Virus record (IMG/VR): IMGVR_UViG_3300028591_000112
Coordinates: 31,934-95,933 of that record
DNA from: a virus
Lineage: Duplodnaviria > Heunggongvirae > Uroviricota > Caudoviricetes
DNA length: 64,000 nt
Strand: one strand, 5' to 3'
Under the pieces are notes generated by a model. That model had not been told where the DNA came from, did no database searches, and saw only the letters and a list, made by a program, of their open reading frames with translations. A program made the position numbers and the translations under genes. This document shows positions 9,701 to 56,164 of this stretch, piece by piece (position 1 is the first letter of the stretch; the number at the start of each line of letters is the position of its first letter).

Positions 9701-10343
9701 GTCAGCTAGTTCAGCATTGCAACAAGATTTAGAGGAAGCAAATGCAAAATTAAACGAAATAACAACTGAAGGAACTGGTGCAATTACAATATCTGGAGCT
9801 AATTTCTATGCTACTGACGCAAGTCAAGAAAATAGATTAGTTATTAATAATCAAGGACTTGGTTTCCAAAAGAAAAATACACAAACAGGTGAATGAGATA
9901 CAGCAACAAGTGTTTGGTCTTTAGATGGAACATTTGATGCTCAAAATATCAATGTTAAAAACTTAAATGCTGAATCTATTGTTAATGGTGATTTAGCAAT
10001 AGGTAAGAATTTTGGTAATAATCCAAATAATGGAGTATTAAAAATATATGATGAACAAGACCATTTAATTATCAAGGGTTCTGGTAGCGATGGTCTAGCA
10101 GTTTCCGCAACTAATGCAAATACTGCGGCAGCAGTTCATACAAAGATTACTCCAACAACAGGTATTGAAGGTTATGATAATGCTCATAATAAAGTATATT
10201 ATCATGATAATGATAAATTTGTTGCAAATAAATTAAATATTACTGAATCTATTACAATAGGTTCTATAAAAATAGTTATTATTAATAGTGCAGAACATAA
10301 AGGTATTGGTTTTGTTACTGCAAGAGATAATAGTAATAGTTAA
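3756..10343 (+). CDS. giant tail-tip/baseplate protein (2195 aa), putative distal tail + tail-associated adhesin
   Basis: Preceded by RBS aaaaggagga. A single frame is open 3756-10343 under code 4; I translated the gaps between the five ORF-track fragments and found only TGA, with TAA at 10341-10343. N/T/S-rich, adhesin-like composition. Position directly after the tape measure gene. Confidence 0.6.
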
Positions 10344-13023: not shown

Positions 13024-14001
13024 ATGACAGATACTGAATTAAAAAATGCAAGAGGCATTGATAGACAAAGAATTTTATTTCCAATGTATCATTATTCTCC
13101 TTATTATGGACATGGTGTAGGACATGATGGACAACATAGATGGTCTTATGCTATTGATTGTATAGGTAAAGATGGTGGTAAAGACGAAGTTTATGCTCCA
13201 TTTGATTGTACTGTTACAAATGTATTTGTAAAATCAGGTTGTTCTCCTGAAGTATGGCTTCAAAGTGATAAACCTGTATTAGCATCTAATGGAGACATTG
13301 ATTATTATACTTTTACTTATACACATCCTAGTGAAGTAAAAAACATGAAAGTAGGACAACAATTTAAACAAGGCGAATTCGTTTGTCATGAAGGAAATGA
13401 AGGTGTTTCCGCAGGCAATCATGTTCATGTTGAAATAGGTAAGGGTAAATCAAAAACTTGGTCTATTGAAAAACATGGCGGAACAACTTATTATATGAAT
13501 CAAAATAAAGTAAAACCTGAAAATGTATGGTTCTTACCTGAAACTAGTGTTATTGATTTTACTACTGATAAAATAGGAAGTAAATATTCTATTAAAAAGG
13601 AAAGTGAAATGACTAAATATGTAACTAGTAAAGATGGTTTATATTTACATAATGCAAAAAATTATAATCAAAGTAGCGAAATTGCTTTATTAGATTATAA
13701 TGAACCTTGTATAGTATTTGAAACAAGCGGCAGTTTTGCAAAAGTTTATGCTAGAGGTTTAGTTGGTTGGTGTAGTAATAAATATTTAGGAGCACAAGGT
13801 AAAAGTATAGAAAATGCTTATGTAAATTCAAAAAATGGTTTATGGTTACATAAAACTAAAGATTTTAAAGTAGTTAGTGAAATTGATTTAATGAAATATA
13901 AAGAAAAAGTAACTTGGATAAGCACATCAGGTAAATTTGCTTATGTTGATTACAAAGGTATAAAAGGATATTGTGCAAAAAATTATTTAACAAAGATATA
14001 G
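13024..14001 (+). CDS. endolysin: M23 (LytM/lysostaphin-like) peptidase with two C-terminal SH3b-like repeats
   Basis: RBS aggtgag before ATG 13024. HxH motif (SAGNHVHVEI) and KVGQQFKQGEF segment align with lysostaphin-type M23 catalytic core. Two ~60-aa internal repeats (YVTSKDGLYLHNAKN... and YVNSKNGLWLHKTKD...) resemble bacterial SH3 wall-binding domains. Confidence 0.65.
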   Translation: MTDTELKNARGIDRQRILFPMYHYSPYYGHGVGHDGQHRWSYAIDCIGKDGGKDEVYAPFDCTVTNVFVKSGCSPEVWLQSDKPVLASNGDIDYYTFTYTHPSEVKNMKVGQQFKQGEFVCHEGNEGVSAGNHVHVEIGKGKSKTWSIEKHGGTTYYMNQNKVKPENVWFLPETSVIDFTTDKIGSKYSIKKESEMTKYVTSKDGLYLHNAKNYNQSSEIALLDYNEPCIVFETSGSFAKVYARGLVGWCSNKYLGAQGKSIENAYVNSKNGLWLHKTKDFKVVSEIDLMKYKEKVTWISTSGKFAYVDYKGIKGYCAKNYLTKI

Positions 14002-27624: not shown

Positions 27625-28115
27625 TTAGTCCCAATTTATTTCAGTTTCTATATCATGGCTATGTGCGTAACCAATGCAAATTGCATCTGCAATATCATCA
27701 TTAACATCTAAATTATAATTTTCTTTAACAAATTGAATATCTTTACTTTTTAATACTGTACGAGTTTGACCTCTGCCAGTTTTGATTCCAATTTTTGACC
27801 TCCATGAGCTAGGATAAATTAATTCTAGCTCTTGTTTTTTATTGAATTCATATAAAGTATGCGCAATTACCCCTTGTAATCACATAAGCGCTCTATGTGT
27901 TTTTAAGTTAGATGGTCCACTTTCTGGGCGCACTTCTTCCGCGATTATTTTGTCTATATCTTTATGTTTGTTTAATATATCATTAAAACCATTTTTCATA
28001 ACATCTATACGAGTAAGCAAATTAGTTGACGAAGATGTGATACAACCATAATCAACTAACAATCCATCTTGAAATACTGCTCAACCGCTAGAATGAGTAG
28101 ATAAATCTAGACTAA
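27625..28115 (-). CDS. ruvC: RuvC-like Holliday junction resolvase
   Basis: RBS agagaggtgacaagaATG. MKILSLDLSTHSSGWAVF (catalytic Asp), IIAEE, DDIADAICIGYA motifs. Reads through two TGA codons; TAA stop. Confidence 0.7.
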
Positions 28116-28179
28116 GAATTTTCATTCTTGTCACCTCTCTTTATATCTACATTATACAAAAAATTTTAATTTAACGCAA

Positions 28180-28208
28180 TAAAAAAGAAGTAGATTAACT
28201 CTACTTTT
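28180..28208 (-). terminator. rho-independent terminator overlapping the GT1 stop codon
   Basis: On the minus strand: aagtagag ttaatc tacttc tttttt. Confidence 0.45.
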
Positions 28209-29304
28209 TAAATTTTTTAACAACTTCTACAAAAGCTATATTATATTTATTATTCTCAGTTAAAGTTAACATACGGTTAAAATCAACATCTCAAGTTTCG
28301 CCAGGATTAGGCACTCTACCTAATGTTGCGTCACGAATTGATTTAGCTTTGTATGAAGGTAATGCTTTAACTGTATACATATATTCTCTGTCTTGAACAT
28401 ATGAACTTTTTCTTAATACAAATAATTCATTTCATCTATCTTTTTTAGGTATATATTTAAAATCTTTGGGGATATGATTATATATATCTTCAATAGGTAT
28501 ATTTTGCATATCAAAATCTACCATATAACAATTCTTTTTATCTTCTAATCCTATTTCATTAAATACTGGACATGGAGTAACTATTACTGGAACTCCCATA
28601 GATAAAGCCTCAACAACAGAATAACAATAGCCTTCGCTATCTGATAACTGGACTAAGTAATCAGCATTTTTTATGTATCCATTTATATCTAATCTGGGTT
28701 TCATATATACGATATTGGGATTATCAATAGCATTTGTATCAGTAGTAAATACAGTTCATAAATAAGGTATACCCGCATCATCAAGAGCTTTAGCTAATTT
28801 TATCATACGTTCTTTACCTTTTTCTCTTGATAAACGAGTGGCGGAAACGAGATTTAAAATACGCTTAGGTTCATCTAAAGCTAGTGGGTTATAGCATAAC
28901 TCACATTTTACTCCCATTAATTCAGAAAAACTTTTACAAGCCTGTTCACTTACTCCAATATATTTAGTAATTTTTCTACTAATAACAGGTCTAAAATTAG
29001 GGTTCTTTTTCATTAATGATTGATAGTCTGCATGAATTACAAAATAATAATCTTCAGCTTCAACATTATCAATAATATCCATACCATAATTGAAAAATGC
29101 TTTTTTACATTTTATTTTTTGACCTGTATATTGAATACATTTAGCATACTTTTGTAAACGTTCAAGTTGTTCTTTTTCTGCTCGTTGATATACAATAGTA
29201 ATGTCATAATCTTTATATTTTTTTATTAGATAATACAAGAAGGTTTCTGTTCCACCAATAAAATTAAGATATGAAAAATAATACATATTAGTTAATTCTA
29301 TCAT
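28201..29304 (-). CDS. glycosyltransferase family 1 (GT4-type)
   Basis: RBS ggaggagag before ATG 29304. Fragments 28756-29319 and 28432-28704 share a frame through TGA. C-terminal EGYCYSVVEALSMGVPVIVT matches the GT1 E-x7-E region. Confidence 0.65.
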
Positions 29305-29305: not shown

Positions 29306-31219
29306 CTACTCTCCTCCATTATATATTTCTAATTTAAAATTTGGGTCTTTTTGTTGCTCTGCGGCAATCCACAAATCCGCGTATTCTCTATCATAAACTC
29401 AATTTTGTTTTCCTCCAGCTCAATGATATATTTTAAAATGAGGATGTGTTTTCGTAAAAGGAGATGAATTATATTGATTACTGATAAATAAAATATTATC
29501 TTTAAATACTGCGTTGATAGTATCTTGATCTGGATAATATAATTTATTTTCATTAACAAATTCATCTAATTCTTTAACTTTATTATCTTCTCTTATTTTT
29601 TGTAAATTAAATAAAATGACGCCACTGTTGATATAGTTATATTTATCTACAGGAATATTAGGTGTCATTAGATTAGTTTTAGCTCCTTCATCAATAATTC
29701 CCGCAGCATAATAATTAGATAAATCTATATCTCATAATTCATCTATATTATCTTTAACAATTAAATCAGTATCTAAATATAATACTTTATCTTCAGGAAT
29801 TAATAAAGCAAGATATAATCTTATTAATGACGCTTTTGAATATCCTGTATTATAATTTTCTCCATTAGGATTTAAACAATTAAGTTTATTTATATTGATA
29901 TATTCAATATTTATAAAAGGTAAATTTAATTCATCATCTTCTATAAATAGATATAATTTTCTATAATAATTATTACGAGTATAAGCATATAATCAAGTAT
30001 ATAAATATTGATAATAATTTTTAGTACATGATAATGCTATTACTTGTTTTTTATTTGACCACCAACCATATGCTATGTCTGATTGACTCCCTTCTCGAGG
30101 AAAATTATAGAAATATGGCGCAAAATCTATTCTACCTAGCTTAGGATTTCTTTTATCTCACATTTCCGCACAAAAATCATTATCTTCGCCATTTTGTCTG
30201 TCATTAAAGCGGTAGTCTCCAATAATGCGCTTAGAGAACATTGCTTGCCATACAGTACCAGAACCGAAAGCTCCTAACGGATTTGCATTACTTCTTATTT
30301 TAAATTGAATAATATCCATATCATCTGTTACCATACAATCAAGAACTAAATCAATAGCATTTTTTTCTGCCAACCAATCGTCGCCGTCAATAAACCAAAT
30401 ATAATCTGCTGCGGACGCATCCAAACCCGCGTTTCTTGCTCCTCCAGGTGAGCCGGCCGCGCACTCAATAATTTGATAATTTCAATCGCTATTGTCCATT
30501 TCTTTAATAATTATATCTTTTGTATTATCAGTGCAATTATCACAAACAAAAATAATTTTTCTTTTTGCATTAGTCTTATTTTCTTGTGCTTTTAAAGACC
30601 TTAAACAAGGTTTAATATATTTTTCTAAATTATGACATGGAATAATTATATCAACAGAAGGTGATATTGTTTTATTACTTATTTCTTGTCATTTTTCATT
30701 TAATATAGTATTTTTCTTTATATAATAAGCATAGATTTGATTTCCCATAAATAATTTTAATTCAGGGTATCTTGTTTTCATATTTTGTTTTGTTAAATCT
30801 GGTTGTTTATGAATTTCATATATATTTCCATCAACTTCTTCTTGCGGCAATTCATATGGAATTGCAACAATTATTTGTTTACATTTAGTTAATAAATATT
30901 TTAATACAGTTTTTGCTTCTAATATAGATAAATGTTCTAATACATCTCCCATAATAATTAAATCATAAGAATTATCTATTTTAAAATTTTTTATATCTTC
31001 ATTATATACATTAGTATATAATGTTTTTAAATTATGATTTTCAATGTTTGGTGCTCAAGCCTCAACAGCATCTATATTATTAAAATAACCATTTAATAAT
31101 TTTGCGTAAGTACCATTGCCCGCACCTATATCTAAAACTCTATCTGTTGGAGAAAAAGTTTCTTTTATATATTCAATTATTTGTTTTTTATAAATTGTAT
31201 AGCTTCCTGCATTATCCAT
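29306..31219 (-). CDS. three-domain enzyme: class I SAM methyltransferase + GT2 glycosyltransferase + GT8 glycosyltransferase (about 637 aa)
   Basis: RBS aaaggagaagtgtctATG at 31219. N-terminal VLDIGAGNGTYA (MTase motif I). Middle VDIIIPCHN...IIFVCDNCTDNT...FIDGDDWL (GT2 DxD). C-terminal YLDTDLIV, NSGVILFNL, HWAGGKQNW (GT8). The three parts are one frame separated only by in-frame TGA at 30689-30691 and 30155-30157; I translated the gaps and found no TAA/TAG. Confidence 0.6.
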
Positions 31220-31280
31220 AGACACTTCTCCTTTTTATTATTATAATCTAAATTTTTTATTCCATCAAAAAAGACTTAGA

Positions 31281-32714
31281 TTATTCATCTAAGTCTTTAG
31301 TTTTTTTATCTACAATATTTGCTAATAATGTTTTTATATTCACACCTAAACTATCTTCAGCTACTTTTAATACTTTGTCTATTTTTTGAGTATTGTTTTC
31401 AATTAATTTAGTAGATTGGTCACCATACATAGTAATATTATCTACATTAGCTAATGGAGCAGAAACTTCTTTTGCAACTTGTGGTAATGCAGTCATAATC
31501 ATTTCAATAACTGATGCTTCACCCATTTTCTTTTGAGCTTCAGCTTTTTTCTCAATACCTTCAGCTTCTGCTAATGCTTTAGCTTTAACACCAAATGCTT
31601 CAGCTTCAAGAATAGCTCTTTTACCTTCAGCTTCAGCAAGCAACTTAGCTTTAATACCTTCAGCCTCTCTTATGTTTGCTTCTTTCTCAGCTTCTGCACG
31701 AGCAATTCTAGCTTGTGCCTCTGCCTCTGCCGCCTTTATTGCACGAGTCTTATCAACTTCTGCTTGAACTTCTGCAGCATATTTTTCTGCATCTGCTTGT
31801 TTTTTGATTTCAGCTTCAAGTTCTTGTTCTTTTAATGAAACTTCTCTTTGCTTTAATAAAGTAATTTTTTCAGTTTTTGCAACTTGAGCATCTACTTCAT
31901 TTTCATTAATAGTTTTTTGTTGAATTGCTTTTTGAATATTATATGCGGCATCTGCATCTGCTTTTTTTCTATCTTGTTCAATTTGGAACTCCGCCTTTTT
32001 AATTGCTAGATTTTTTTGTTGTTCTGCAATTTTAGTATCTGCGGCAGCACGTGCACGCGCACCTTCTTCATCAGCAACTGCTTCCGCAATTTTAATTTCT
32101 TTATTAGCTTGTGCTTTTGCAATTTTAGCATTTTTTTGGATTTGTGCTAAATTATCAACACCTAGATTTACAATAGCATCATTCTCATCTGTTACATTTT
32201 GAACATTTAAATTTACTATTTCAAGACCTAATTTTGCTATGTCATCAGTGGCATTTTCTTGTATCTTTTGTGAAAATAATTGTTTATTATTAACTAAATC
32301 AGTTAATTTCATTTGTCCTATTATCTCACGCATATTACCTTCAAGAATTTGTTGAACATTATTTGCAATATCTTTTGTTGTTTGATTTAAGAAATGCTTA
32401 GCTGCAATTTGTATTAATTCATTATTTGTTGAAATTCTTACATTTGCAACAGCATCAACATCAACATTAATAAAATCATTTGTTGGAACTTTATTTGCTC
32501 TAACGTCTATTTGAATAAGTTTTAAAGGTATTTTATCTATTCTTTCAAAGAATGGTATTCTAAATGCGGCCTTGCCTGTAATAACTCTAGGCTCTTTCTT
32601 AATACCAGATATTAAAAATACCATATCGGGTGGGCATTTTACATAACTAACAGCAATTAAAATTCCCACTAAAATAATTACTGCTATAATAATTCCTAAT
32701 AAAATAAAACTCAT
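31281..32714 (-). CDS. SPFH/band-7 (flotillin-like) membrane protein
   Basis: Intact 477-aa ORF. N-terminal TM helix, SPFH region, then a long Ala/Glu/Lys-rich coiled coil typical of flotillin/YqiK. Confidence 0.6.
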   Translation of the reverse strand: MSFILLGIIIAVIILVGILIAVSYVKCPPDMVFLISGIKKEPRVITGKAAFRIPFFERIDKIPLKLIQIDVRANKVPTNDFINVDVDAVANVRISTNNELIQIAAKHFLNQTTKDIANNVQQILEGNMREIIGQMKLTDLVNNKQLFSQKIQENATDDIAKLGLEIVNLNVQNVTDENDAIVNLGVDNLAQIQKNAKIAKAQANKEIKIAEAVADEEGARARAAADTKIAEQQKNLAIKKAEFQIEQDRKKADADAAYNIQKAIQQKTINENEVDAQVAKTEKITLLKQREVSLKEQELEAEIKKQADAEKYAAEVQAEVDKTRAIKAAEAEAQARIARAEAEKEANIREAEGIKAKLLAEAEGKRAILEAEAFGVKAKALAEAEGIEKKAEAQKKMGEASVIEMIMTALPQVAKEVSAPLANVDNITMYGDQSTKLIENNTQKIDKVLKVAEDSLGVNIKTLLANIVDKKTKDLDE

Positions 32715-32740: not shown

Positions 32741-33190
32741 TTATTGACCAGTAGAACCAAATCCGCCTGAACCTCTTTCTGTTTCTGTTAATGAACCAGT
32801 AACTTCAAATGTAATAGGACAATAAGGAATAACTACTAATTGAGCAATACGCATTTGAGGACTTATTACTCTATCTTCAGTAGAATCGTTATGAAGAGCA
32901 ACAATTATTTCTCCTCGATAATCTGAATCAACAACGCCTACACAGTTTGCTGGACGAAGTCCTTGATTTGTAGCAATTCCACTTCTTGCAAAAATTGCTC
33001 CAAAAGTTGCTTCTGGTAATTCCATACTTAATCCAGTTGTAATTTTTCTAGTTTCTCCTGCGGGGATTGTAACGTCTTCACTTATTGCGGCATATAAATC
33101 ATAACCTGCAGCAGCATCACTTCCGTGTGTAGGTTCAACTGATTCAGGATTTAATCTTCTATATTTAACAATTGTTGTTTCTACGCCCAT
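32741..33190 (-). CDS. dut: dUTP pyrophosphatase
   Basis: dUTPase motifs GSDAAAGYDLYA, ARSG, GVVDSDYRGEI, RIAQLVV, TERGSGGFGSTG. Confidence 0.85.
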   Translation of the reverse strand: MGVETTIVKYRRLNPESVEPTHGSDAAAGYDLYAAISEDVTIPAGETRKITTGLSMELPEATFGAIFARSGIATNQGLRPANCVGVVDSDYRGEIIVALHNDSTEDRVISPQMRIAQLVVIPYCPITFEVTGSLTETERGSGGFGSTGQ

Positions 33191-34682: not shown

Positions 34683-35465
34683 TTATTTTTTTATTTTTTT
34701 CAAAGTATATTCATTGTACTTATTATATCTTGTATGAACATCTTTTAATTCTTCTGCAGTTCAATCTTTGGTTAGTGCATCATAAAAGCCACAAGGTGCA
34801 TATTCAGGGCAGCCTCCGCATCTAATACATTGTGGTACACAAGCCCAGAAAATATCTTCATCATATTCTCTAATTGCTTCAATAACAGATTGTCAATATG
34901 CTCTTGTAGTAGGATCCGCACATGTGCATAATCTTTTATATGAAATATTTAGTATTGCTTGAATATTAGCTTCCATTTCCATTGGAACAGTATCCATTTG
35001 GCTACGTTGACTACGGTCTTTTACTACTGTTCTATCTGCTCTTTGTGTACCAACTCATTTTTCTACTCCTTCATGATGTCTAACAAAATGAGTAGATATT
35101 GCATATGGAATTTCATCTCATTTTCAACTAATTGTTCCACGTCTAATTGGACTATGTTCACATATTAATAATTTTCTCTTTCATTCATGAGAAGGTTCTT
35201 TATCTCCTGCCTCTTTTGAAATAGTTGTCATACAGGCTGATTTAATTTTTTTTCAATTAATATTAAAATCTGTAATTCTAGTTGTTGTATTGTATTTTTT
35301 AACCGGTGCTTCTTCTGTTTCAACTTTTGCTTGACCTTCTTTAAAATTAGCTTCTATTCCAGTATATTGATTTCTATATGGGAATAAAACTGTTTCTAAT
35401 TCAGTCATATCATTAATTTCTTTTACAATTGTTTTTTCTGGTGTAATAATCTTTATTTCGTACAT
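34683..35465 (-). CDS. hypothetical protein with C-terminal cysteine cluster (about 261 aa)
   Basis: ORF 35253-35465 continues through about 8 TGA codons to TAA at 34683-34685 (I translated it in full). Contains CEHSPIRRG, FVRHHEG and C-terminal CVPQCIRCGGCPEYAPCG. No confident family. Confidence 0.35.
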
Positions 35466-36635: not shown

Positions 36636-37134
36636 TTTCTATAGCCCCCGTCTTCATATTTATAATATTTTGATTGCGGCTACCGCGCCATTTCAATGTT
36701 ATATCTCGTTCTTGAAGTATAAACGGGCCTTCAATCAAATAATCTATAGTTGTTAATATTTCCCCAACTCCAATTAAATTAGTATCTTCTCTTAATTGAG
36801 ATAAAGTATACCCTGTCCATAAACAGATTTTAATATCTGGGAATTTATTTTTTACTACTTTTAATAGTAATTTTATGAACTCTCTTTTATCATAAGTATC
36901 TAAAGGTTCTCCACCTAAAATACTTAAATTTCTTTGTATTCCATTTGCAGAAATTAATTCAATAATATGATTTATTAAATCATTTCAATCTCAAGGTTTT
37001 CCGCCATTTGGATTTCAAGTTTCTGGATTATGACATCCCTGACAATGAAAAGGACAGCCTTGAAGGAATAAACTAACGCTTACTCCTTCCCCATTGACGA
37101 AATCATTACTATTAATACCTGCAACCCTAATCAT
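36628..37134 (-). CDS. nrdG: anaerobic ribonucleotide reductase activating protein (radical SAM)
   Basis: RBS ggagaattgaaATG. CPFHCQGCHNPETW (CxxxCxxC). Three TGA codons, one at a Trp aligning with E. coli NrdG (STW). Lies directly downstream of nrdD. Confidence 0.75.
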
Positions 37135-38095
37135 TTCAATTCTCCAATTTTTTAGAATGTTTATATCTTTGTTCAGTCTCTTGTTGTTTTCCTTTATTAA
37201 ATGCAGTTTTATAATCTCCTGTTAAATATCCTGTAACGCGTCTAAGTTGTTGAATATGCTCGCTTCCGCACATTGGACATTTATCATTAAATTCATCTGT
37301 ATATCCACAATCTAAACAAGTATCATTTGGAACATTAATTGCAAAATAAGGAATATCTTTATCCATAGCATAATTAACTATTTCTTCAAGAGCATCTAAA
37401 TTATGTTTAACGCCGCCCTCTAGTTCTACATATGTAATACATCCAGCATTACTATATCCAGTTAACTGTGCCTCAATATCTATTTTTTCAAATGGACTCA
37501 TTTCTTTCCATACTGGAACGTGAATACTATTAGTGAAATAATCTCTATCACTAACATTAGGAATAATTCCATATTGTTTTTTAAATTTTTTCATTGATGT
37601 ATAACACATATTCTCAGCAGGAGTATAATAAACACCAATGTTTAAATGTAAATCTTTTTTAAATTGTGCGCATCTATCTTTAAATAGTTGCTCAATTCTT
37701 TTAGCTAACTCCATACCTTCTTCTGTTGTATGGTCTTTACCAATTAATATTTGTAATGTTTCTGCTAAACCTATTTGGCCTATAACAAGAGTTCCATGTT
37801 TCATAGCACTTTCAACTGTTTTGCCATCATAGCCAAGCATAATATTGTTTTCATACATAAACTTAGCAGATTCAGGTGATTGATTAATAATCCAATTATA
37901 TCTTTCTACTAACATATCTTTTGCTTCATATATTTTTTTATCAAGCAATTCCATAAAAGCTTCAATGTCTTTATTAGCTTCCATAGCTAAAGTTGGCATT
38001 ACAATAGTAACAGGACAAATGTTTCCGCGGCCATCCTTAGTTTGAGGATTTACACCTGGATCAGCGTTTATATCACTTCCGTTATAGGTTCTACA
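37127..38095 (-). CDS. nrdD: anaerobic ribonucleoside-triphosphate reductase, exon 2 (C-terminal part including the glycyl-radical motif)
   Basis: Starts TGTAGAACC (CRTYNGS...GRGNICPVTIVMPTL). Zn ribbon CLDCG...CPMCG and RVTGYL glycyl radical site. Ends KLENWND then TAG at 37127. Confidence 0.75.
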
Positions 38096-39188
38096 CGTTT
38101 TTTCCTTATGTTACCATAAGCACTGACTATATCTTCTGCCTTGCGGCAGCCTTCTGCTTCGAGCTGGTGCTTATCTCCAGCCCTACTCCCTTACATTCAT
38201 CAGGGATAGTCGATACACTTTATTTTAAAATTTCAATAATATAACCTTCAATTTGAGGTCTTTCACCTTTTGCTATCTTAGCAATTATTTGTCTACTAGG
38301 TAATTCAGGCATCTCTCTTTCTACTTCTCTATAACTTTTAAATATTTTAATTTCATTAGTAAGAAGTATTGTAATTTTAATTTGAGTTCCTTTTCTTCTA
38401 ATATTTGTAGATACTGTATATTCATTAGTATAATCATCATTTTCATAAGCAATTAATCATTCATCTCTAAATAATTTTTTAATTTCATGATTACATCTTC
38501 TTGAAATGAACTGATGATTATTTTCATTAAAGAATTGTTGCATTTCAGATTGACTTCCAAAATGATATTCTTCATTAGTATTTATATTTTTACATTTAAC
38601 TCCAGTAGCATTTGGATTGTTAGCTCCTAATTTTGAAGCTCTTATTTTTTCACTTATTGTAGCAAGTTCTTCTTTAGTCTTACTCTGATAAGTATTTCCG
38701 CCACTTTTATTTGTAGCATCTGTTTCATTGTAACCATTCTCAATACTGTTATAATATCTAATCCAATACTGTTCCTTTTGAGTTAATTCTTCTTGAGTTT
38801 CTGCAGTATCTATTATTTCTGCTTTAAAATTATCTACTCCATAATATCTTAATGCTCTTGCAAAATGAGTATCAATAATATTATTTAAAGCATCGTTTTT
38901 ATGTCTATTAAATCTTTCTTCTAAAGTTCTTATTGTTTGTCCAATATAAACTTTATTATTTTTTAAATTTGTTATTTTATAAACTATCATAATAAAATCT
39001 CCTTTTCTTTTTCACCAATATATGAAAAATTGTACGGTACATTTTATTAATTTTGTTCATTTTTTTATTGAAATTTTAAAATCTTAGCACGGTCTCATCC
39101 TATCTTTAGGACCTAACCGTTAGCGGCGTTTCCGCCACACCCATTAAGCATGGTTCAAAAGGTTTTAGATGAGCTGTAGTTTACACTT
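38096..39188 (-). other. group I intron (IA-like) interrupting nrdD at STMG|CRT
   Basis: 5' exon ends in U (ATGGGT). Intron ends in G (aaaaaacg) before TGTAGA. Splicing restores the conserved NrdD TMGCR motif. Contains a T4 td-like core GUAUCGACUAUCCC and carries a GIY-YIG ORF. Confidence 0.7.
38220..38990 (-). CDS. GIY-YIG homing endonuclease within the nrdD intron (256 aa)
   Basis: RBS aaaaggagattttattATG. VYKITNLKNNKVYIGQT...YWIRYYNSIENGYN (GIY-YIG). Continues through TGA at 38457-38459 into a C-terminal putative DNA-binding extension; TAA at 38220. Confidence 0.75.
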
Positions 39189-40421
39189 ACCCATCGTTGA
39201 AACATATGTTTTAGGGTCGTTAACATCATATCCAGCATTAACTGACCAATCTACATTAACATAATTAGGATATAATCTTTGTGCTGTTGATTTAAGAGCT
39301 AATTTAAATAAATCATAATTAGGGTCTCCAGGTTTGCGGTTAACTCCTTTCATGCATTGAAATATACCACATGGGAATATTGGAGTTTTTCTAACTTTAC
39401 CCACACCTTCAATAGAACCTTCTAATAATGCTTTTGTAACCATTCTACCTTCAGGTAAAGTACAAGTACCATAATTAATTGAAGTAAATGGTAATTGATT
39501 GCCACTTCTACTTTGTAAAGTGTTTAAGTTATGATACATACCTTGAACAGCTTGCATTAATTCTTTTTCTGTTTTATTAAGTGCATACTTATAAACTTTT
39601 GGGAATTGTTTATAAAAGTCTGCGTCGATAGGTAATTCATCTGATTCTTGTCTTAAATCACTTTCTTCGATATATTCCATACCTTCATTAAAATGTTTTT
39701 TAAATGATAATCTAACATATGGAACCATAGTCCAGTCTAAATGACTTGCACTAACTCCGCCAAATTGTTGTAGGGATTGTAACTGAAATAATACTGCTAC
39801 TAATTGAAATGCTGTATTTATAGAACGGGCTGGTCTTACATCTGTTTGTCTAGTATTAAAACCTTCTGCTAATAATTTATCAAAAGGTACTGTTAAACAA
39901 TTGTGCATACCAACTGCATATGCATCTAAATCATGAATATAGATTTCATTATTTAAATGATTTTCTCTTGCCATAGGTGATACAATATAATTAAGAGCAT
40001 AATCTTTCATAAGTTCGCTTCTTGCTTCACCCATGCGGCCGCCGAATGAATACTCATCAACATTAGCATTTTGATTTTGAACATCAGAAGCTTCAATTTT
40101 CTCTTTAATATTTTGCATCAATTTACTATTAGCATTTCTAATTTTTGTTCTTTCTTCTCTATAAAGAATATAATTTTTAGCGACATCTTTTCTTTTTGTT
40201 GACATTAAACCTTTTTCAACAAGGTCTTGAATTTCTTCAATTCCAGGTGTTTCATCAACATCTAAAAAATATCCTTCAATATAACTAGCTATATTTTCAG
40301 CCTTTTCTCTTGCATAATCGGTAATTTCACCATCTACGTCTTGAAATGCGGCAAGAATCGCATTTTGAATCTTAGTTGCATCAAATGGAACTATACGTCC
40401 ATCTCTTTTAATAACATTCAT
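39189..40421 (-). CDS. nrdD: anaerobic ribonucleoside-triphosphate reductase, exon 1 (ATP-cone and N-terminal core)
   Basis: RBS gaggagg. MNVIKRDGRIVPFDATKIQNAI (ATP cone). Intact 411 codons with no TGA. Ends YVSTMG at the intron. Confidence 0.75.
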
Positions 40422-40470: not shown

Positions 40471-41061
40471 TTATATATGAAAAGTTTTTTTAATAGATGA
40501 ATCTAATCTGCTTAAGCAGCTATGCTCTTTTAAAAATAAATAAAAATTTTCTAAATTTACATTATTTCCATTATAGTAAGTATAAAAATCAAAATCTAAA
40601 TCTACATTAAAGTCTTTTGAATCACTTAAAAAACGTCTGCATATCTCTTCACAATTTGGTTTATCTTCTCGATTTAAAGAGCGCATTAAACGAGTTTTAT
40701 CTTCGCAAGCAATGAGAATAGGAGTAATATCTAAATTATTATCTTGTAATAAACACTCTAATGCATGGATATTAAATACTCCTATATTAATATTATTTTC
40801 TTTTAAATCATCTCTTGCTGTACCATAAAATCAATTATTAAAACTTGTTGCTTCTAACATTGTTCCATCTAAAACTTTTAGTCCAAACTCTTCTTCTGTT
40901 AGAAAATGATAATTTACATCTTCTTTTTCATATTCTCTTTTTGGTCTTGTTGTTGTAGTAATAATTTTATTAAAACCAGTTTTATTAACTATATAATTTA
41001 ATAAAGTATCTTTACCACATCCGCTAGGGCCAAAAAGGGCAATAACTTTTATTTTATTCAT
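40471..41061 (-). CDS. gmk: guanylate kinase-like nucleoside monophosphate kinase
   Basis: P-loop GPSGCGKDTL, TTTRPKREYEKEDVNYHFLTEEEF, FYGT. Two ORF-track fragments joined through TGA. Start overlaps the dnaE end. Confidence 0.65.
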
Positions 41062-43688
41062 TATTACCGCCCTTTCTATCATGTCTTAATTGCATATTTC
41101 CCTTTTCATCTATTTGTTCAATTAAATATATTTGATGTGTTTGTGTCTTTGTATAGGTCTTAGCTACAAAAGTATCATCTCTTCTAAATCCAGTTATCAT
41201 TAATTTTGTTCCTCTTGTGAACCAGCCTTTTTCTATAACATGTTTTGTTCCATCTGCTTGAAGTTCACTTATTTGTCTATTATACATAGCAAAATAATCT
41301 TTAGTAAATTTAATTGGAACAATACCATCTGGAGTTAATAAAGTGACACTATTTTTTGTATCATTTTTATTAATAACAGTTCCTACTATTTTAAATGTTT
41401 TAAAAATAGGAATTTCTTTACCATTTCTTTTAAACATTTGATCGACTTGCGGATTAGGGGATAAATTAAAGAAATCTGTTAGTCCATATTTTAAATTATT
41501 TACATGAGATAATTCATGTTCATGATAATAGAAACATAAAGCTTCCATCTCCCATGCAGATAAATTGCCTTGTGCATATTTATCTCATGCTTCTTTAAAT
41601 AATAAAATATTAAACTTTTTAAGCATTTCCGCTTGATGTTCTTGTATATATGTGCGGGCTTCCGCCATTACATCTTGATAAATTTTATCCCATCTTGTTT
41701 GCAATATACAAGTTAATCCATTAATTACTTCTAATTGGTCTATATCAAAATTTGCATTATAAAATGTTTCACATACATTATTAAATACATAATATTTTCC
41801 AACTTTTTGATTTGCTTTTAAATATCTATTAAATTTAAAAGTTTTCTTTTGGAACTCTAATTCTTCAGGAATTAAATCATGTTCTAATAATCCATTAAAA
41901 TTTTGTAATGTTAATCTTTTCTTTGCATCGCAAGTTTTACTTAAATAATATGTCATTGTCCAAAAACGTGGTTCTACATTTGCGGCAGCAGCATATTGTT
42001 TATCTACTTTATCAAAAGCTCCTGCTTTAATCAAACTAATCATTGCACTTTTATTTAATGGACATCTATTAATAAAATCTGCTATTCCAATATATGGACG
42101 TCCGTTTTTAATTTGTTCTATAATAGGCCCACCAATATTACTTAATGCCTTCATACCAAATAAAATTTCATTATTATCTACATCTGGCTCAAAACTATAA
42201 TCAGATTTATTAATATCAACTAAACTAACTTTAATTCCTTTACTTATAATATCACTTAATGCTTTTGCAATTTTACTATAATCTGTTGTTTTTTCTTTCT
42301 TTTCTACAATATATCCATCTTCATCTTCTTCAAAATCGCTATCTTCTTCTAAACTTCCGCTATTAACTATTAAACATGCGGTATTCCAATATATTGGGTT
42401 CCATCTTGTTGCTACATACATAGTTTGAAAACCTATAAAACTATATGCTAATGCGTGAATAATTGAGAATGAATATCCCATTTGAGGACCAACTCCGCAA
42501 GTTCAAACATAATGGCCTAAACAAGGACTTGCCGCTTGATCTAATACCTGTTGTCTTAATGCTGGAATTTTACTCATTTGTTTCTTTCCAACTATTTTAC
42601 GTGCGGCATTTGCATCTTTTAATGAGAAATTACATATATGTTCATCCATTAACATTCTCATTAATTGCTCTTGACTTGGCGGAACTCCGTGAGAGCTCTT
42701 AAAATATGGCTCTAATGTTTTTTGTTCTTCTTTTGTTAAACCATATTCATCCATTTCTTTATACCATAAATTAATATTATTTTTAAATCTAATATATTTA
42801 TCCATTGGAGATTCTTGACCTTTTTCTGCTGTCATTAATCTCATTAATCCATTTGCATCAGCCATTTCCATTATATTAGATGGCTTAATTTTCTTAGCGG
42901 CTTGACTTCCTACGTCACTATCAAATTGAAAAATATTTAATACATTATTTTCTTGAAGAACTTTCCAATATTTATCTTCTTCAATAGGAAGAACATTTGG
43001 ATGAAAATATTTATTATAAACTTCTCTTAAAGTTAAATCATTTTCTATTTCTCCATAATCTTGTAACATTCTAATAGCTTCCGCTAATTTATCTTGAACT
43101 TCAGTTACTAAAAAGTCATATTTAGTCATTCCGCATGCTTCACACATATGTAAGTCATATGCAGTGATTACCTCTCCTTTTGGAGTTCTCATAAACGAAC
43201 CAAATTCATACGGATCTTCATCAAATAATATAACTCCTGAGGCATGACTACTTCTTTTATTTACTAGTCCTTCTATTCCCATCATTATATCTAATAAACC
43301 AGGGAATTGATTAACTTCATTAATAAATGTTTTATTAGGTTTTCTATCTTTGTCTTCATTTCCATATACAACATCATTTAAAGACCATAAAAATCCACGT
43401 TCACTAGGAATTAATGAACTTAAATATTGAGCTGTATCAACATCTATTCCATCAGGAAAATCTTCACTACGATATCCGCGGCAAGCGGTTAATATAGTTG
43501 AACGAGTTCCTTCTGTACCAAAAGTTGCTATTAAAGTACAACCTAAATTTTTTCTACTTATTTCATTTATATCACTATTAAAATTTTGTCCTCTTTCTTT
43601 TTTAATTTCATTTAAAATTTTAGGACGCTTACTAGGACATAAATCTAAATCTATATCTCCTAATTCTACACGCTCTTTATTTAAATCA
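41054..43688 (-). CDS. dnaE: DNA polymerase III alpha (DnaE-type), exon 2
   Basis: Starts (F)DLNKERVELGDIDLDLC (the PDIDIDF motif). Contains HASGVIL and a C-terminal OB fold. ORF-track fragments 42503-43285, 41585-42481 and 41054-41548 are in one frame joined by TGA. Confidence 0.7.
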
Positions 43689-44707
43689 CGTTATCCACCA
43701 TTTCTGATGGCGTAGACTATATCTTATTCTTTAAATATTTTCTATAAAATAACCACAGTAATATCCATTTCCTGCCCTAGCAGCTTTTAATCCAGCTCTT
43801 GCGCTTTCTACTTTAGTAGTTTTACATATTTTATTTTCTACAAATCATTCAGCACAATCTTTTACGGAATCAAATTCTTTATGAAAATCATTTTTACTTA
43901 TCATAATTCTTTGTCCAGCTGCTTGTCTAAAACTAAATCTTGGAATATTATTTTGATTTAATATATCATCTACTGTTGAATGATTAATTCCAAAATTTAA
44001 TGCTGTTTTTCTTGCACTTCTAGTTTTATAATAATCTTCAATAATTTCTTTATTTGGAAGCATTTTATGGTATTGTTGACCTCCAAATGTTTCATTATAT
44101 CCTTTTACAAAACTATTATAATAATCTATCCAATAAATTTCCGCCTTATCTAATTGTTCATAAGTCTCTATATTATCTTGAAGAACTTCAAAAGTAAAAT
44201 TTTCAATTCCATATTTTCTCATAGCTTTATATAAAGTTTTGTTAATACAATTTGGATGATTGATATTTATATTTCTTTTATGTTCTTTTCATCTTTCTTC
44301 AGCAGTTTTTATTGTTTGACCAATATAACATTTATTATTTATTTTATTTGTTATTTTATAAATTAACATATTAATCTCTCCTTTTCTATTATTATATGAA
44401 AAGTAGATTAATATTTTTCTACCTTTTTGACCAAAGTGGTAGAAAATATTTAAAGATTTTCGCACTTCGAGTAGTAACTCATCTTCTACTCTACTCCTTT
44501 CGGATAGTCGTTACACCTTGCGGCGACTGCCGCCTTGGCACTGGATTACCTTCAACTTTACTTGCTAAGGTTTCCCTGTTAGCATAAGAATTAATTAACC
44601 ATTTCCTGTTAAAACTGTTCGTTTCTTACACACCCTTGAGTAACAAGGTTCACGAAATTTTTTATACTATACATTACTGTATAGGGCACCTATTTCTTAA
44701 AAGTTCT
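43689..44707 (-). other. group I intron interrupting dnaE at KWSLPFWRF|DLNKERV
   Basis: 5' exon ends CGCTT (U). Intron ends ...gataacg (G). The joined exons give a continuous alignment to the DnaE consensus KYNLLFERFLNPERV. Core GUAACGACUAUCCG (+ strand 44491-44514) resembles the T4 td intron P7 region. Confidence 0.6.
43724..44369 (-). CDS. GIY-YIG homing endonuclease within the dnaE intron (about 215 aa)
   Basis: RBS aaaaggagagattaatATG. LIYKITNKINNKCYIGQT...YWIDYYNSFVKGYN. Two in-frame TGA codons (44222, 43845). TAA at 43724. Confidence 0.7.
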
Positions 44708-46023
44708 AAGCGCCAGAAAGGTAAACTTCATTTGATTGGATCAAGTTGAGTTATTCCCAATAAATAATGATTAAGACCAGAACAACTTGAACCACGGCCT
44801 GCACCAACGATGCTGCCGCACTCCCAGAATAAATCAACGTAATGTTGTAAAGTTACTGGATAACTAAACATATTAGTTCCTAATTTTTCACTAATTGTTT
44901 GCTTTATATCAGCTTCTTCTTCTAATCTATCTAAATACTCTTGATTAAATTTTCCTATTTGTTGAAGTTTATTAATACATTCGTTAACCCAATATCTATT
45001 AACTTTATCATCTGAGTTTGCTAATTCATTTAATATTGGATAATTACTTATTCCTGTATATCCTTTAGGATAATCTTTTACTTCAACATGCGGAATTGTT
45101 TGTGCATGAGCTAAATTATAATTTTCTATTTGATTATATATTTCTATACTATTATTATATAATTCATTAATAAAATCTATATTAAATTCAGATGCATTTA
45201 AATTATTTATTATATCATTATCATCTTGAAGATAAGCAAATTCATAAAATTCATCCACTTCACGTTCTCCAAATTTACTATTTAAATATGCTTTGTGAAC
45301 ATATCTATCTTCTTTTTTAAGATAATGTGCATCTGTTCCAATAACCATTTTTAAACCAAATGCTTTTGCTATTGCAGGTAATCTTTTATTTACTGCAACT
45401 TGTTCTTTGCTACTTCCAGGCGCACACTCTATATAAAAGTTTTGTTCTCCAAAAACTTTTTTACACCATAATAAAAAATTTACTATATTACTATGTGCGG
45501 CAGTCGCGCCTTCGCTATCACCCGTTTGTTCACATTTTATTAATTCTAATGTATTGACAGATAATTCTCCACCTAGACATGCTGTTGTTCCTATTAAACT
45601 ATTAGGATATTTTTTTAAAATTAATTCTAAATCATCTTTTAATGTTGGAACCCTTTCTAAACCTCTATCCCAATAACTATTTAACCAAGCTAAAGAGGAT
45701 AATTCTCTTAAAGCTCTATGTCCTTCTTTATTTTTTGCTATTAAAATAAAGTGATAATATCTTTGTCCTTTATCTCTTGTATCTGTTAAATATATTTCAT
45801 TTCCTAAAGCAATTTTAAAATCAGGATGTTCTTTTTGAATTTCTTGTTGATAAAAGTTTAATTCAGGATGAGAACAGATTGCTTCATGGTCTGTGATTGC
45901 AATTCCTTTTAATCCAAGTTCAATAGCACGGTTTACTAAATCTTTAGGTCTATTAATTGAGTCAAGTAAACGAAGATTTGAGTAATAAGTGTGAGAATGC
46001 ACTTCGAAACGAGATACTTCCAT
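44708..46023 (-). CDS. dnaE: DNA polymerase III alpha (DnaE-type), exon 1 (PHP domain)
   Basis: MEVSRFEVHSHTYYS...GIAITDHEA is the PHP domain N-terminus. 431 codons without TGA, then TGA and a short tail up to the intron. Confidence 0.7.
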
Positions 46024-52544: not shown

Positions 52545-53046
52545 TTTCTTCCTCCTCTATGCTGAATAATTTTGGTGGTTGAACATAAACTTGCGGCGGC
52601 GCAATTTCAATTTCTTCAACTTTATTATTAATTCGTTTACCTTCATTTATCATATTTGCAATAAATAATCCATAATAATAAGTTTTTGCATCATTATAAA
52701 TATAAGGTAAAATCCCTATTCCGCCATTTGCATCTTCTATAGAATTTCTTTTTATTTCAAACCACCATTTTAATGCTTTTAACATTCCGCTATAAGTAAA
52801 ATTATATTGTTTTTTATAATCTGTTATTTGTCTTGTTATTTTTGCGGGAATTGCTGTATAACAATATGTTTTTTTAATATATTGTAATAAGTTTTCATAA
52901 TCTATTTCTTCTTGCGTTTTATTTGATTGAACTTCATCATGACATTTTTTATGCGCATATCTACGAGCACTTACTGCAACTCATTCTTCTTGGTTTCTAT
53001 CAAACTGCTCTCCGCAATAATAACATTTTGCTATTAATTTAGCCAT
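52534..53046 (-). CDS. zinc-ribbon protein, possible helicase loader/replication accessory (170 aa)
   Basis: Strong RBS taaggaggcggaaATG. CYYCGEQF...AHKKCH. One TGA. Lies immediately upstream of dnaB. Confidence 0.35.
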
Positions 53047-53078
53047 TTCCGCCTCCTTAAAGTTTCTTATATATAAAT

Positions 53079-53107
53079 ATTATATTATATTTTTTAATAA
53101 AAATCAA
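53079..53107 (-). promoter_or_regulatory. sigma70/sigmaA-type promoter for the replication operon
   Basis: Minus strand TTGATT, 17-nt spacer, TATAAT, about 30 nt upstream of the zinc-ribbon gene RBS. Confidence 0.45.
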
Positions 53108-53108
53108 A

Positions 53109-53134
53109 AAGACACTTAATTAAGTGTCTTTATT
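53109..53134 (-). terminator. rho-independent terminator after sak4
   Basis: Perfect 9-bp stem aagacactt aatt aagtgtctt followed by a T-rich run on the minus strand. Confidence 0.5.
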
Positions 53135-53135
53135 A

Positions 53136-54158: not shown

Positions 54159-54180
54159 ATTTTACTCTCCTTTATTTAAA

Positions 54181-54212
54181 AAAGCCGATTAAAATAAGAA
54201 ATCGGCTGTTTT
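54181..54212 (-). terminator. terminator-like hairpin at the 3' end of the 313-aa gene
   Basis: Minus strand aaaacagccgatt tcttatttta atcggc tttttt, overlapping the stop codon. Confidence 0.35.
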
Positions 54213-56152: not shown

Positions 56153-56164
56153 TTTTAATACCCT

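Follow-up and report, generated by a model that had tools for sequence, protein, structure and literature searches.

TGA as a tryptophan codon in a methyltransferase-GT2-GT8 fusion gene of a putative SPbeta-like gut phage

Gut phages that read TGA as tryptophan (genetic code 4), among them the ~127-kb 'Agate' lineage, have been described by Borges et al. (bioRxiv 10.1101/2021.08.26.457843), who report that recoding affects 26-71% of the genes in phages whose hosts use the standard code and ~90% in phages with recoded hosts. A viral protein that combines several glycan-building activities is also known: A064R of chlorovirus PBCV-1, a polypeptide of 638 aa with two rhamnosyltransferase domains and a methyltransferase, builds and methylates the end of the capsid N-glycan (PMC9614988). 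PMC12619734 cites Freeman et al. 2023 for mycobacteriophages in which glycosyltransferases encoded by the phage and active in the cytoplasm add glycans to capsid and tail-tube subunits of the same virus, and it also cites phage DNA glycosyltransferases of diverse kinds.

The gene considered here lies in a 64-kb stretch of phage DNA, the whole of which was analysed and is called the window below; it represents about half of the genome. We infer that the phage is an SPbeta-like gut phage of Bacillota with a genome of ~130 kb, of the TGA-recoded type of Borges et al. The contigs of its relatives are 125-131 kb long, and the C-terminal part of its DnaE shares 38.5% identity with SPbeta YorL across 99% of its length. 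The reading that we prefer, with a probability of roughly 85%, is that the window contains one ordinary MT-GT2-GT8 gene (methyltransferase, GT2 and GT8 glycosyltransferase) in a phage genome that reads TGA as tryptophan.

The frame (29306..31219, minus strand) runs from an ATG at 31219 to a TAG at 29308-29306, comprises 637 codons plus the stop when TGA is taken as Trp, and has no TAA or TAG inside. A Shine-Dalgarno sequence, AAGGAG (31228..31233, minus strand), could be read from the sequence 8 nt 5' of the ATG. The first-pass annotation had placed methyltransferase, GT2 and GT8 in a single frame; this was borne out by the ORF and by a Pfam domain search of the code-4 translation, and the motifs it had quoted (VLDIGAGNGTYA, FIDGDDWL, YLDTDLIV, NSGVILFNL and HWAGGKQNW) were all found. 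The product is a soluble enzyme of 637 residues that, by its sequence, is predicted to join a SAM methyltransferase, an inverting-type GT2 and a retaining-type GT8. No transmembrane segment was predicted. Fifteen full-length homologues with 52-77% identity were found, and the catalytic motifs are invariant in 16/16 sequences. The structural statements below refer to an AlphaFold2 model of the 77%-identical homologue P0001, made with a 15-sequence alignment (pLDDT 82.9).

The class I SAM methyltransferase domain (30710..31219, minus strand; ~residues 1-170) was recognised by Pfam PF13489, PF07021 and PF08241. Methyltransf_23 (PF13489) matched residues 15-98 with 28.6 bits (cut-off 27) and PF07021 scored 26.1 bits (cut-off 21); in the PDB profile search the domain matched 3cc8 at 7e-8. 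The SAM-binding motif VLDIGAGNG occupies residues 28-36, with D30, G32, G34 and G36 invariant in the homologue alignment, and in the model residues 8-167 form a Rossmann-type domain of alternating beta strands and alpha helices. The linker to GT2 (30659..30709, minus strand; ~residues 171-187) is helical in the model (helix 174-184). Its sequence is variable among the homologues, and it is 9 residues shorter in those of 620 aa.

The GT2 domain, of GT-A fold (30062..30658, minus strand; ~residues 188-386), gave a Glycos_transf_2 (PF00535) match at residues 191-316 with 76.5 bits (cut-off 23.3; 3e-21). Its DxD motif is D278-G-D280-D281, in which the three aspartates are invariant, and it carries a conserved GEDNDF block. 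The extent of the domain was consistent across the profile alignment with residues 2-201 of S. aureus TarS (2.4e-17 in the PDB profile search), the GT2-only homologues of other phages, which cover residues 188/189-382/384, and the strands and helices of the model, which span 187-383. The GT8 domain (29309..30046, minus strand; ~residues 392-637), a retaining, LgtC-like GT-A enzyme by its matches, gave a Glyco_transf_8 (PF01501) hit at residues 434-590 with 89.3 bits (cut-off 24.3; 4e-25). The DxD motif is D483-T-D485, and a C-terminal motif includes H599/K604; D483, D485 and H599 are invariant. The PDB profile search matched it to LgtC (1g9r, E = 8.7e-19) and also to GlyE (5gvv), and Foldseek gave a TM-score (TMt) of 0.65 to LgtC.

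The three domains had been described as parted only by two TGA codons, at 30689 and 30155. This proved incorrect in the number and in one position: the gene has eight in-frame TGAs, at codons 55, 177, 246, 354, 409, 496, 600 and 607, and the codon in question sits at 30158-30160. TGA55 (31055..31057; this and the following codons on the minus strand) lies within the methyltransferase domain, at a position that is Tyr or Phe in relatives. Thus standard decoding would end here after 54 residues instead of 176 and yield a 54-aa stub, where the first-pass annotation had expected a 177-aa methyltransferase. TGA177 (30689..30691) is the only one in an inter-domain linker, here between methyltransferase and GT2, so the claim that TGAs stand exactly at the junctions is true for this codon; it fails for TGA354 (30158..30160), which lies inside the GT2 fold at a conserved Trp of a helix (TGG in L004, TGA in L001, L003 and L005, TAT in L002). 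That at least one of eight TGAs should fall in a linker is expected by chance with P = 0.44, as ~45 of the 637 residues are in linkers. Codon 177 is GAA (Glu) in L001, L003, L004 and L005, the four closest relatives, and a gap in L002; TGA177 is thus a lineage-specific single-base change. At this position, Trp and stop are absent from all 15 full-length homologues.

The remaining TGAs all lie inside domains. TGA246 (30482..30484, GT2) stands in a conserved Trp column, with TGG in L003 and L004 and TGA in L001 and L005. In GT8, TGA409 (29993..29995) and TGA496 (29732..29734; TGG in L002 and L004) occupy conserved Trp columns, TGA600 (29420..29422) belongs to the nearly invariant HWAG motif, and TGA607 (29399..29401; TGG in L002) encodes an invariant Trp. 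Altogether, six of the eight TGA columns are mostly Trp in the 15 homologues, and in the DNA alignment of the five relatives L001-L005 TGA and TGG exchange for each other in the conserved Trp columns. The nucleotide contexts of the eight TGAs have nothing in common. Unusual TGA richness of this gene was considered and rejected: TGA makes up 8/14 of its Trp codons against a window background of 42% (p = 0.28). For the RuvC, GT1 and MT-GT2-GT8 genes combined, TGA was marginally enriched (p = 0.064). As had been claimed, the downstream domains lack starts of their own (no Met codon is near either domain start; the first Met after residue 177 is at 241, the first after 354 at 517), and the full three-domain protein does require TGA decoding.

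The same usage is found throughout the window. It contains 108 in-frame TGAs and 151 TGGs, i. e. TGA supplies 42% of the Trp codons, and 32/53 ORFs (60%) have at least one, among them two of 1206 aa and 2195 aa. ORFs called with code 4 cover 94% of the window and amount to 79.8 kb, compared with 53.6 kb for code 11. TGA positions are uniform along the ORFs (KS p = 0.78), and the 53 ORFs end in TAA (39) or TAG (14), never in TGA. The eight TGAs of the MT-GT2-GT8 gene are therefore Trp codons no different from the window's other 100, and their positions are unrelated to the domain architecture. The replication block at 51006-63974 is poor in TGA (6/35 Trp codons, Fisher p = 0.0015), which fits partial recoding. 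Several replication genes do carry TGA (those for the DnaE parts, RecJ, an SF1 helicase and NrdG), and the M23 endolysin gene has none; the partition into early and late genes is thus imperfect. A tRNA scan of the 64-kb window and of the loci of nine relatives was negative, neither the window nor the relatives' loci yielded a suppressor tRNA, release factor or TrpRS, and Rfam at gathering thresholds gave no matches, including to suppressor tRNAs and group I introns.

The fusion itself does not depend on TGA. The relative L002 encodes a protein (P0019, 52% identity) of the same MT-GT2-GT8 architecture with 0 TGA and 12 TGG, and its 18 called genes have neither in-frame TGAs nor TGA stops. Together with the lack of Trp177 in all 15 homologues, this means that the fusion predates the recoding and is independent of it: it is ancestral in this lineage of phages and exists as well in a TGA-free version. 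Hence the suggestion that the gene is a footprint of three genes joined by recoding does not hold. The TGA-free relative and the gene of the window could possibly serve as a small natural control for the spread of sense-TGA. Among deposited phages, the DNA-level search returned only four fragmentary matches ('Bacteriophage sp.' records from human faeces), and the protein-level search found none with the MT-GT2-GT8 fusion. In a scan of bacterial and archaeal genomes there was one close match, a contig of 43.5 kb, probably phage DNA, from the bin of a Clostridia MAG, and otherwise three distant GT2 matches.

How the TGAs come to be decoded can be interpreted in other ways. If the host itself used code 4, the same gene would be read with the same tryptophans, constitutively and without timing or gating. 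The presence of TGA in 60% of the ORFs, several replication genes among them, the lack of a suppressor tRNA in the window and in the relatives' loci and the absence of ORFs terminating in TGA would all suit such a host. Yet TGA would not be expected to supply only 42% of the Trp codons, to be almost missing from a 13-kb replication block or to be avoided entirely by one relative. The only bacterial-bin match is the Clostridia MAG, the endolysin (M23 plus an SH3-like region) and the SPbeta-like replication genes point to ordinary Bacillota, and the published shares of recoded genes, 26-71% for standard-code hosts and ~90% for recoded ones, also speak against it. A code-4 host thus seems rather improbable to us. 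A programmed read-through switch at the two TGAs near the junctions, or relics of the stops of three genes, has next to no chance of being correct. It is true that TGA177 occupies the linker and that the downstream domains have no start codons. But TGA55 would halt translation within the methyltransferase, six more TGAs stand inside domains at conserved Trp positions, and TGA354 is in the GT2 fold and not at a boundary. Moreover, the four closest relatives have GAA at codon 177, where Trp and stop are lacking in every homologue, the fusion occurs without TGA in L002, and the contexts of the eight TGAs share nothing. Judged from these sequence comparisons, both the switch and the relics are already refuted; TGA is an ordinary Trp codon window-wide. 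An example of programmed read-through is Q-beta, in which UGA read-through extends the coat protein to A1. In both cases UGA must be decoded for the full-length product, but here eight UGAs occur in the gene and 108 in the window, all at Trp positions, and neither a conserved stop nor a defined short product exists. The use of TGA in the MT-GT2-GT8 gene is reassignment, not read-through.

Directly downstream lies a gene for a GT1/GT4-type (GT-B) glycosyltransferase (28201..29304, minus strand; PF00534 at 2.7e-10; 3 TGA, 0 TGG). Its ATG is 1 nt past the upstream TAG, and its ribosome-binding site GGAGGAG (29310-29316) is inside the end of the MT-GT2-GT8 ORF, so the two genes are translationally coupled. 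GT1 follows MT-GT2-GT8 directly in L001, L003, L004, L005 and L009. The minus-strand unit ends with a gene for a RuvC-like Holliday junction resolvase (27625..28125, minus strand; phrog_159 and phrog_827 at ~1e-19), and the order dUTPase, MT-GT2-GT8, GT1, RuvC-like is kept in five relatives. On the other side is a gene for an SPFH/flotillin protein with an N-terminal membrane anchor (31281..32714, minus strand; PF01145, PF15975). Both annotated neighbours, GT1 and flotillin, were confirmed with Pfam; the flotillin gene is absent between the dUTPase and MT-GT2-GT8 genes of L001, L003, L004 and L005, and it is a neighbour, not a member of the conserved cluster. A promoter scan was uninformative in this AT-rich DNA (43 sites, 38 +/- 7 expected), and a TTGATG-17-TATAAT match upstream of the MT-GT2-GT8 gene was not relied upon. 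Genes of nucleotide metabolism occur nearby, namely dUTPase, NrdD/NrdG and a kinase, with a thymidine kinase in relatives. The gene g25 (34683-35465), considered as a ThyX-like enzyme that might hint at DNA modification, was dropped after Pfam (E <= 1), PHROGs and PDB sequence searches came back empty; none of its 978 homologues has a domain annotation.

In a standard-code host, the MT-GT2-GT8 gene could not be translated beyond codon 54 until a TGA-decoding state is set, and the same block would apply to 31 other genes of the window. With translation blocked before TGA decoding, the enzyme would come into play at mid to late stages of lytic growth. It could then, with the coupled GT1, take as many as three sugars from the nucleotide-sugars of the host and transfer them to an acceptor in the cytoplasm, and the methyltransferase domain would O-methylate the resulting glycan. 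Probably, MT-GT2-GT8 and GT1 build a short methylated glycan in lytic growth, and the glycosylation and methylation of some macromolecule, as suggested in the first-pass annotation, is a reasonable role. No genes for sugar-nucleotide synthesis and no base-hydroxymethylase were seen in the window, i. e. in about half of the genome.

For the acceptor, virion proteins are the most likely candidate, at somewhat less than an even chance, followed by host wall-polymer precursors and then by modified DNA. Modification of glycopolymers in the host envelope, be it wall teichoic acid, capsule or lipid-linked precursors, is conceivable at perhaps one chance in a few; it might, for instance, block superinfection in the manner of the prophage enzyme TarP or of the Gtr systems. 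The GT2 domain is nearest to the teichoic-acid glycosyltransferases TarS, TarP and RmlT, and in P0034-P0038, from other contigs, this GT2 module is part of fusions with Stealth capsule-phosphotransferase domains. The SPbeta-like relatives of the phage are temperate. On the other side, a standard-code lysogen would presumably be unable to express a gene with eight TGAs, the gene belongs to the conserved, syntenic core and is not a variable moron, and it has neither a membrane segment nor a flippase partner. Still less likely is that the enzymes hypermodify the phage DNA by glycosylating hydroxymethylated bases, with additional methylation. The gene sits amid genes of nucleotide metabolism, and diverse phage DNA glycosyltransferases are known, at least as cited in PMC12619734; yet a dCMP/dUMP hydroxymethylase was not found in the window or in the relatives' flanks, and the best structural matches in Foldseek are glycan or protein glycosyltransferases and not DNA glucosyltransferases. 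Fusions with sugar O-methyltransferases, moreover, are typical of glycan capping.

Going further, MT-GT2-GT8 and GT1 might together be a system for virion glycosylation that is conserved in SPbeta-like, TGA-recoded gut phages. Being rich in TGA, the genes would be expressed only after the switch in decoding, alongside the structural proteins, and the enzymes would place a short O-methyl-capped glycan on capsid or tail proteins. This is a tentative proposal that we hold to be more doubtful than not. If it were true, the system would be a bacterial-virus counterpart of chlorovirus A064R, and the virion glycan might influence how virions in the gut bind to mucus or are recognised by the immune system; with virion proteins as the acceptor, phage virion glycosylation would extend to gut phages of Bacillota. 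As there is neither junction-specific recoding nor a domain switch, the gene deserves no further attention as a curiosity of recoding. Its more modest interest is that it encodes a well-conserved enzyme with three predicted glycan-building activities and that, together with a GT1 partner, it occupies the same position across a lineage of ~130-kb TGA-recoded gut phages.

Among known glycosyltransferase systems, A064R resembles MT-GT2-GT8 in its make-up. Both are viral polypeptides of near-equal length with two glycosyltransferase domains and one SAM methyltransferase, both are soluble and cytoplasmic, and both occur alongside further separate glycosyltransferases. However, the order is reversed, the methyltransferase being C-terminal in A064R, its glycosyltransferases belong to other families (a GT-A domain related to GT34 and a novel family), and its host is eukaryotic. 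A064R was not among the matches of the sequence and fold searches, and the resemblance is probably one of analogy, not of homology. The top whole-chain Foldseek matches were WbbM (6u4b), the heparosan synthase PmHS2 (8vh7) and the chondroitin polymerase K4CP (2z86), which likewise have two GT-A catalytic domains per chain, in WbbM including a GT8. Their TM-scores of only 0.22-0.34 indicate a different domain arrangement; none has an N-terminal methyltransferase, and they polymerise long chains, whereas MT-GT2-GT8 shows no sign of processivity. For the single domains, the best sequence and fold matches were TarS and TarP, wall teichoic acid GlcNAc transferases of which TarP is prophage-encoded, for GT2, and LgtC and GlyE for GT8, with the DxD motifs kept. 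At ~20% identity, and without the trimerisation or polymer-binding C-terminal domain of TarS/TarP, acceptor specificity is not transferable from these enzymes. Virion glycosylation in mycobacteriophages, as far as it is cited in PMC12619734, is similar in relying on phage-encoded cytoplasmic glycosyltransferases; it differs in the phylum of the host, and no glycosylated target was identified in our window.

With respect to the genetic code, the closest systems are the phages of Borges et al. Like these, and like 'Agate', the phage has in-frame TGAs aligned with Trp, partial recoding with TGA-poor replication genes, relatives with genomes of ~125-131 kb, one relative without TGA as sense or stop codon and AT-rich DNA (28.6% GC); TGA-depleted stops and standard-code relatives are also shared with the phages of that study. 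There, lysis genes are reported to be the most recoded, whereas the endolysin gene here has no TGA, and no suppressor tRNA was seen in our half-genome window. On the features compared, the size, code and recoding pattern of the phage agree with the 'Agate' clade, and it looks like a TGA-recoded phage of a kind that is already known.

The ORF running on the minus strand from an ATG at 31219-31217 to a TAG at 29308-29306, with a ribosome-binding site (AAGGAG) 8 nt upstream of the ATG, encodes a 637-residue protein when TGA is read as an amino acid. In Pfam this protein matches a class I SAM methyltransferase (MT; PF13489, residues 15-98, 28.6 bits at a cut-off of 27, as well as several sister families), Glycos_transf_2 (GT2; residues 191-316, 76.5 bits) and Glyco_transf_8 (GT8; residues 434-590, 89.3 bits). 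The motifs quoted for the three domains in the first-pass annotation were all found in the translation with TGA as tryptophan (code 4). The MT-GT2-GT8 ORF is real, and so are its three domains.

Across the whole window, TGA encodes tryptophan. The combined length of stop-to-stop ORFs of 100 codons or more is 79.8 kb if only TAA and TAG terminate, compared with 53.6 kb for the standard code. Simple gene calling with code 4 yielded 53 ORFs covering 94% of the window, all ending in TAA or TAG; 32 of them carry in-frame TGA, among them one of 1206 aa (11 TGA) and one of 2195 aa (18 TGA). Together the 53 ORFs contain 108 TGA and 151 TGG codons, and the TGA positions are uniform along them (KS p = 0.78). 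In the block of replication genes at 51006-63974 (-), with DnaB, AAA_24, an SSB-like protein, NAD-dependent ligase and GyrA, only 6 of 35 Trp codons are TGA versus 45% elsewhere (Fisher p = 0.0015), and five of these six belong to just two ORFs, a GIY-YIG fusion (55247-56152) and one that is unannotated (60934-61656). The pattern is consistent with early genes being kept readable in the standard code.

The MT-GT2-GT8 gene had been proposed to be a fusion via two in-frame TGAs located at the domain junctions. Its frame contains eight, at codons 55, 177, 246, 354, 409, 496, 600 and 607, and the second of the two cited lies at 30158-30160, not at 30155. Codon 55 is inside the MT domain, so that the standard code would give a 54-residue fragment instead of the 177-aa methyltransferase that had been predicted. 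Both tryptophans of the HWAGGKQNW motif belong to the six TGAs that went unmentioned. TGA makes up 8 of the 14 Trp codons of the gene, a share no different from the 42% across the window (p = 0.28), and at least one of eight TGAs would fall in an inter-domain linker (about 45 of 637 residues) by chance with P = 0.44.

Where the domains end was seen in three independent ways. An AlphaFold2 model of P0001, a homologue 77% identical to the window protein (pLDDT 82.9), places the MT domain at 8-167 and a linker helix at 174-184; the strands and helices of GT2 extend from 187 to about 383, the connector at 367-372 has low confidence, and GT8 follows from 391. Window residue 354 corresponds to helix 346-355 of the model. 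The family profile aligns from position 176 to 373 with the complete catalytic domain of TarS from S. aureus (chain residues 2-201), and from position 376 with GlyE. GT2 modules lacking MT and GT8 in other phage contigs match residues 188/189 to 382/384. Hence codon 354 is inside the GT2 domain and not at the GT2/GT8 junction; of the two supposed junction codons, TGA177 does lie in the MT-GT2 linker and is the sole TGA in a linker. The claimed special placement is an artefact: of eight ordinary Trp codons, two had been noticed.

In a collection of 5.8 billion proteins, a search found about 20 of 620-637 aa that share the three domains at 52-77% identity, many of them on contigs of 86-130 kb. 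When 15 full-length homologues were aligned with the window protein, identity was unbroken across both junctions and the catalytic motifs (D30/G32/G34/G36, D278/D280/D281, D483/D485/H599) were invariant. Most homologues have Trp in the columns of codons 246, 354, 409, 496, 600 and 607, whereas Tyr or Phe occupies that of codon 55. At column 177 the three closest proteins have Glu and the 620-aa group has a gap of 9 residues spanning the position; Trp is absent there from all 15. The relatives' DNA was compared codon by codon at five loci. TGA and TGG interchange freely between genomes at the conserved Trp columns 275, 282, 324, 354, 386, 496 and 617, and codon 177 is GAA in L001, L003, L004 and L005. 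By this comparison, TGA177 of the window is a lineage-specific single-base change from Glu to Trp in a variable linker. At the fifth locus, L002, the homologue (P0019, 52% identity) has 12 TGG and no TGA, and none of the 18 genes called on this 22-kb stretch uses TGA in frame or as a stop. The fusion therefore exists independently of TGA, which excludes that it is a product or footprint of recoding. Neither a read-through switch at domain junctions nor fusion by recoding is supported.

The same modules occur in other combinations. GT2 modules without MT and GT8 (residues ~189-384, 56-67% identity; P0026-P0038, loci L006-L008) are in some of these proteins joined to Stealth (capsule phosphotransferase) domains, and the MT module is fused to GT1, GT32 or TPR domains in other viral proteins. 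Phage glycan enzymes seem to have shuffled their domains extensively.

Both neighbours named in the first-pass annotation are present. Downstream, a GT1/GT4-type glycosyltransferase gene (28201-29304) has its ATG 1 nt past the stop of MT-GT2-GT8 and its ribosome-binding site (GGAGGAG) inside the end of that ORF; a RuvC-like resolvase gene (27625-28125) lies beyond. Upstream are an SPFH/flotillin gene (31281-32714, -; 477 aa, N-terminal membrane anchor) and then dUTPase (32741-33190). The order dUTPase, MT-GT2-GT8, GT1, RuvC-like resolvase and convergent tail genes is kept in L003, L004 and L005, and in L001 with a thymidine kinase gene between dUTPase and MT-GT2-GT8; L009 begins within MT-GT2-GT8, so that only its downstream side is visible. 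The flotillin gene is confined to the window, dUTPase being directly upstream of MT-GT2-GT8 in L003, L004 and L005, and is thus a recent insertion outside the conserved cluster. It has zero Trp codons, and a 12-bp hairpin (31270-31298) followed by a T-run overlaps its stop codon. Among deposited phages, flotillin genes are rare (10 matching records, the best at 43-46% identity on human faecal virome contigs). The L001 dUTPase was called as two ORFs (8404-8751 and 9089-9286) with ~340 bp between them, possibly a further case of a nucleotide-metabolism gene interrupted by an insertion or intron. A 260-aa Cys-rich protein (34683-35465, -), in which 7 of 8 Trp codons are TGA, has 978 database homologues, many with 75-90% identity on 112-138-kb contigs, and no Pfam, PHROG or PDB match; in L002 a homologue (9382-9999) lies immediately upstream of the TGA-free MT-GT2-GT8 gene. 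The gene seems to belong to the core set of this lineage and has no assigned function.

MT-GT2-GT8 belongs to an uncharacterised enzyme family. Over the whole chain, its fold matches bifunctional GT-A/GT-A glycan synthases (WbbM, heparosan synthase 2, chondroitin polymerase); per domain, GT2 matches TarS, TarP and RmlT, and GT8 matches LgtC and GlyE. In the viral structure library, uncultured tailed phages and giant viruses supply the best matches, which are likewise multi-domain glycosyltransferase/methyltransferase proteins. The closest known functional analogue, similar in logic and not in sequence, is A064R of chlorovirus PBCV-1, a 638-aa protein with two rhamnosyltransferase domains and a methyltransferase, which builds and 2-O-methylates the end of the capsid N-glycan (PMC9614988). 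Given the multi-GT fold matches, this analogy and the lack of any detected membrane segment, sugar and methyl transfer to a cytoplasmic acceptor is expected: MT-GT2-GT8 and GT1 would form a glycan-adding, methylating set that could attach up to three sugars and a methyl group. Virion proteins head our ranking of candidate acceptors, followed by wall-polymer precursors and then DNA. We argue for a function in the lytic cycle over lysogenic conversion, because MT-GT2-GT8 is a conserved, syntenic core gene and because its eight TGAs would block expression in a standard-code cell until TGA decoding is turned on.

Two other genes of the window are split. Anaerobic ribonucleotide reductase NrdD (37127-40421, -) consists of an N-terminal part (39165-40421; ATP-cone and NRDD model positions 2-268) and a C-terminal part (37127-37999; NRDD 286-562 and glycyl-radical domain) with a GIY-YIG endonuclease ORF between them (38220-38990). 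This looks like an intron or homing-endonuclease insertion; Rfam at gathering thresholds detected no group I intron there. DNA polymerase III alpha (DnaE; 41054-46023, -) is divided into a PHP/N-terminal part (44674-46023) and a finger/HhH C-terminal part (41054-43285), again around a GIY-YIG ORF (43731-44369). The latter is 99.5% identical to the L005 copy (1160-1894) against only 76-81% for the DnaE parts on either side, which suggests that the endonuclease moved horizontally and recently. In L002, DnaE has an intein in place of the split. The GIY-YIG fusion ORF at 55247-56152 (-) combines an N-terminal membrane anchor, a long coiled-coil-like middle and a C-terminal nuclease (residues 208-290), an architecture unusual for a homing-type nuclease.

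The window has a GC content of 28.6%, with structural, tail and lysis genes at 27 to 27508 (+) and nucleotide-metabolism and replication genes from 27625 onwards (-), comprising peptide deformylase, NrdD/NrdG, a guanylate-kinase-like kinase, DnaE, an SF1 helicase and RecJ as well as DnaB, the AAA_24 protein, NAD-dependent ligase and GyrA. Over 99% of its length, the C-terminal part of DnaE shares 38.5% identity with YorL of Bacillus phage SPbeta and relatives (125-134 kb). One window protein has an exact copy on a 131.6-kb contig, and the only match in a bacterial bin is to a contig from a Clostridia MAG. Large gut phages that recode TGA to Trp have already been described, and by size and recoding pattern the window seems to match the TGA-recoded gut phages of Borges et al. 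(bioRxiv 10.1101/2021.08.26.457843), particularly the ~127-kb 'Agate' lineage. The two have in common their genome size, the partial recoding of TGA, a replication block poor in TGA and a relative that lacks TGA altogether. In such phages the lysis genes are the most strongly recoded (Borges et al.), whereas the putative endolysin of the window (13024-14001, +; an M23-type peptidase with repeated C-terminal modules) goes the opposite way, with seven TGG and no TGA.
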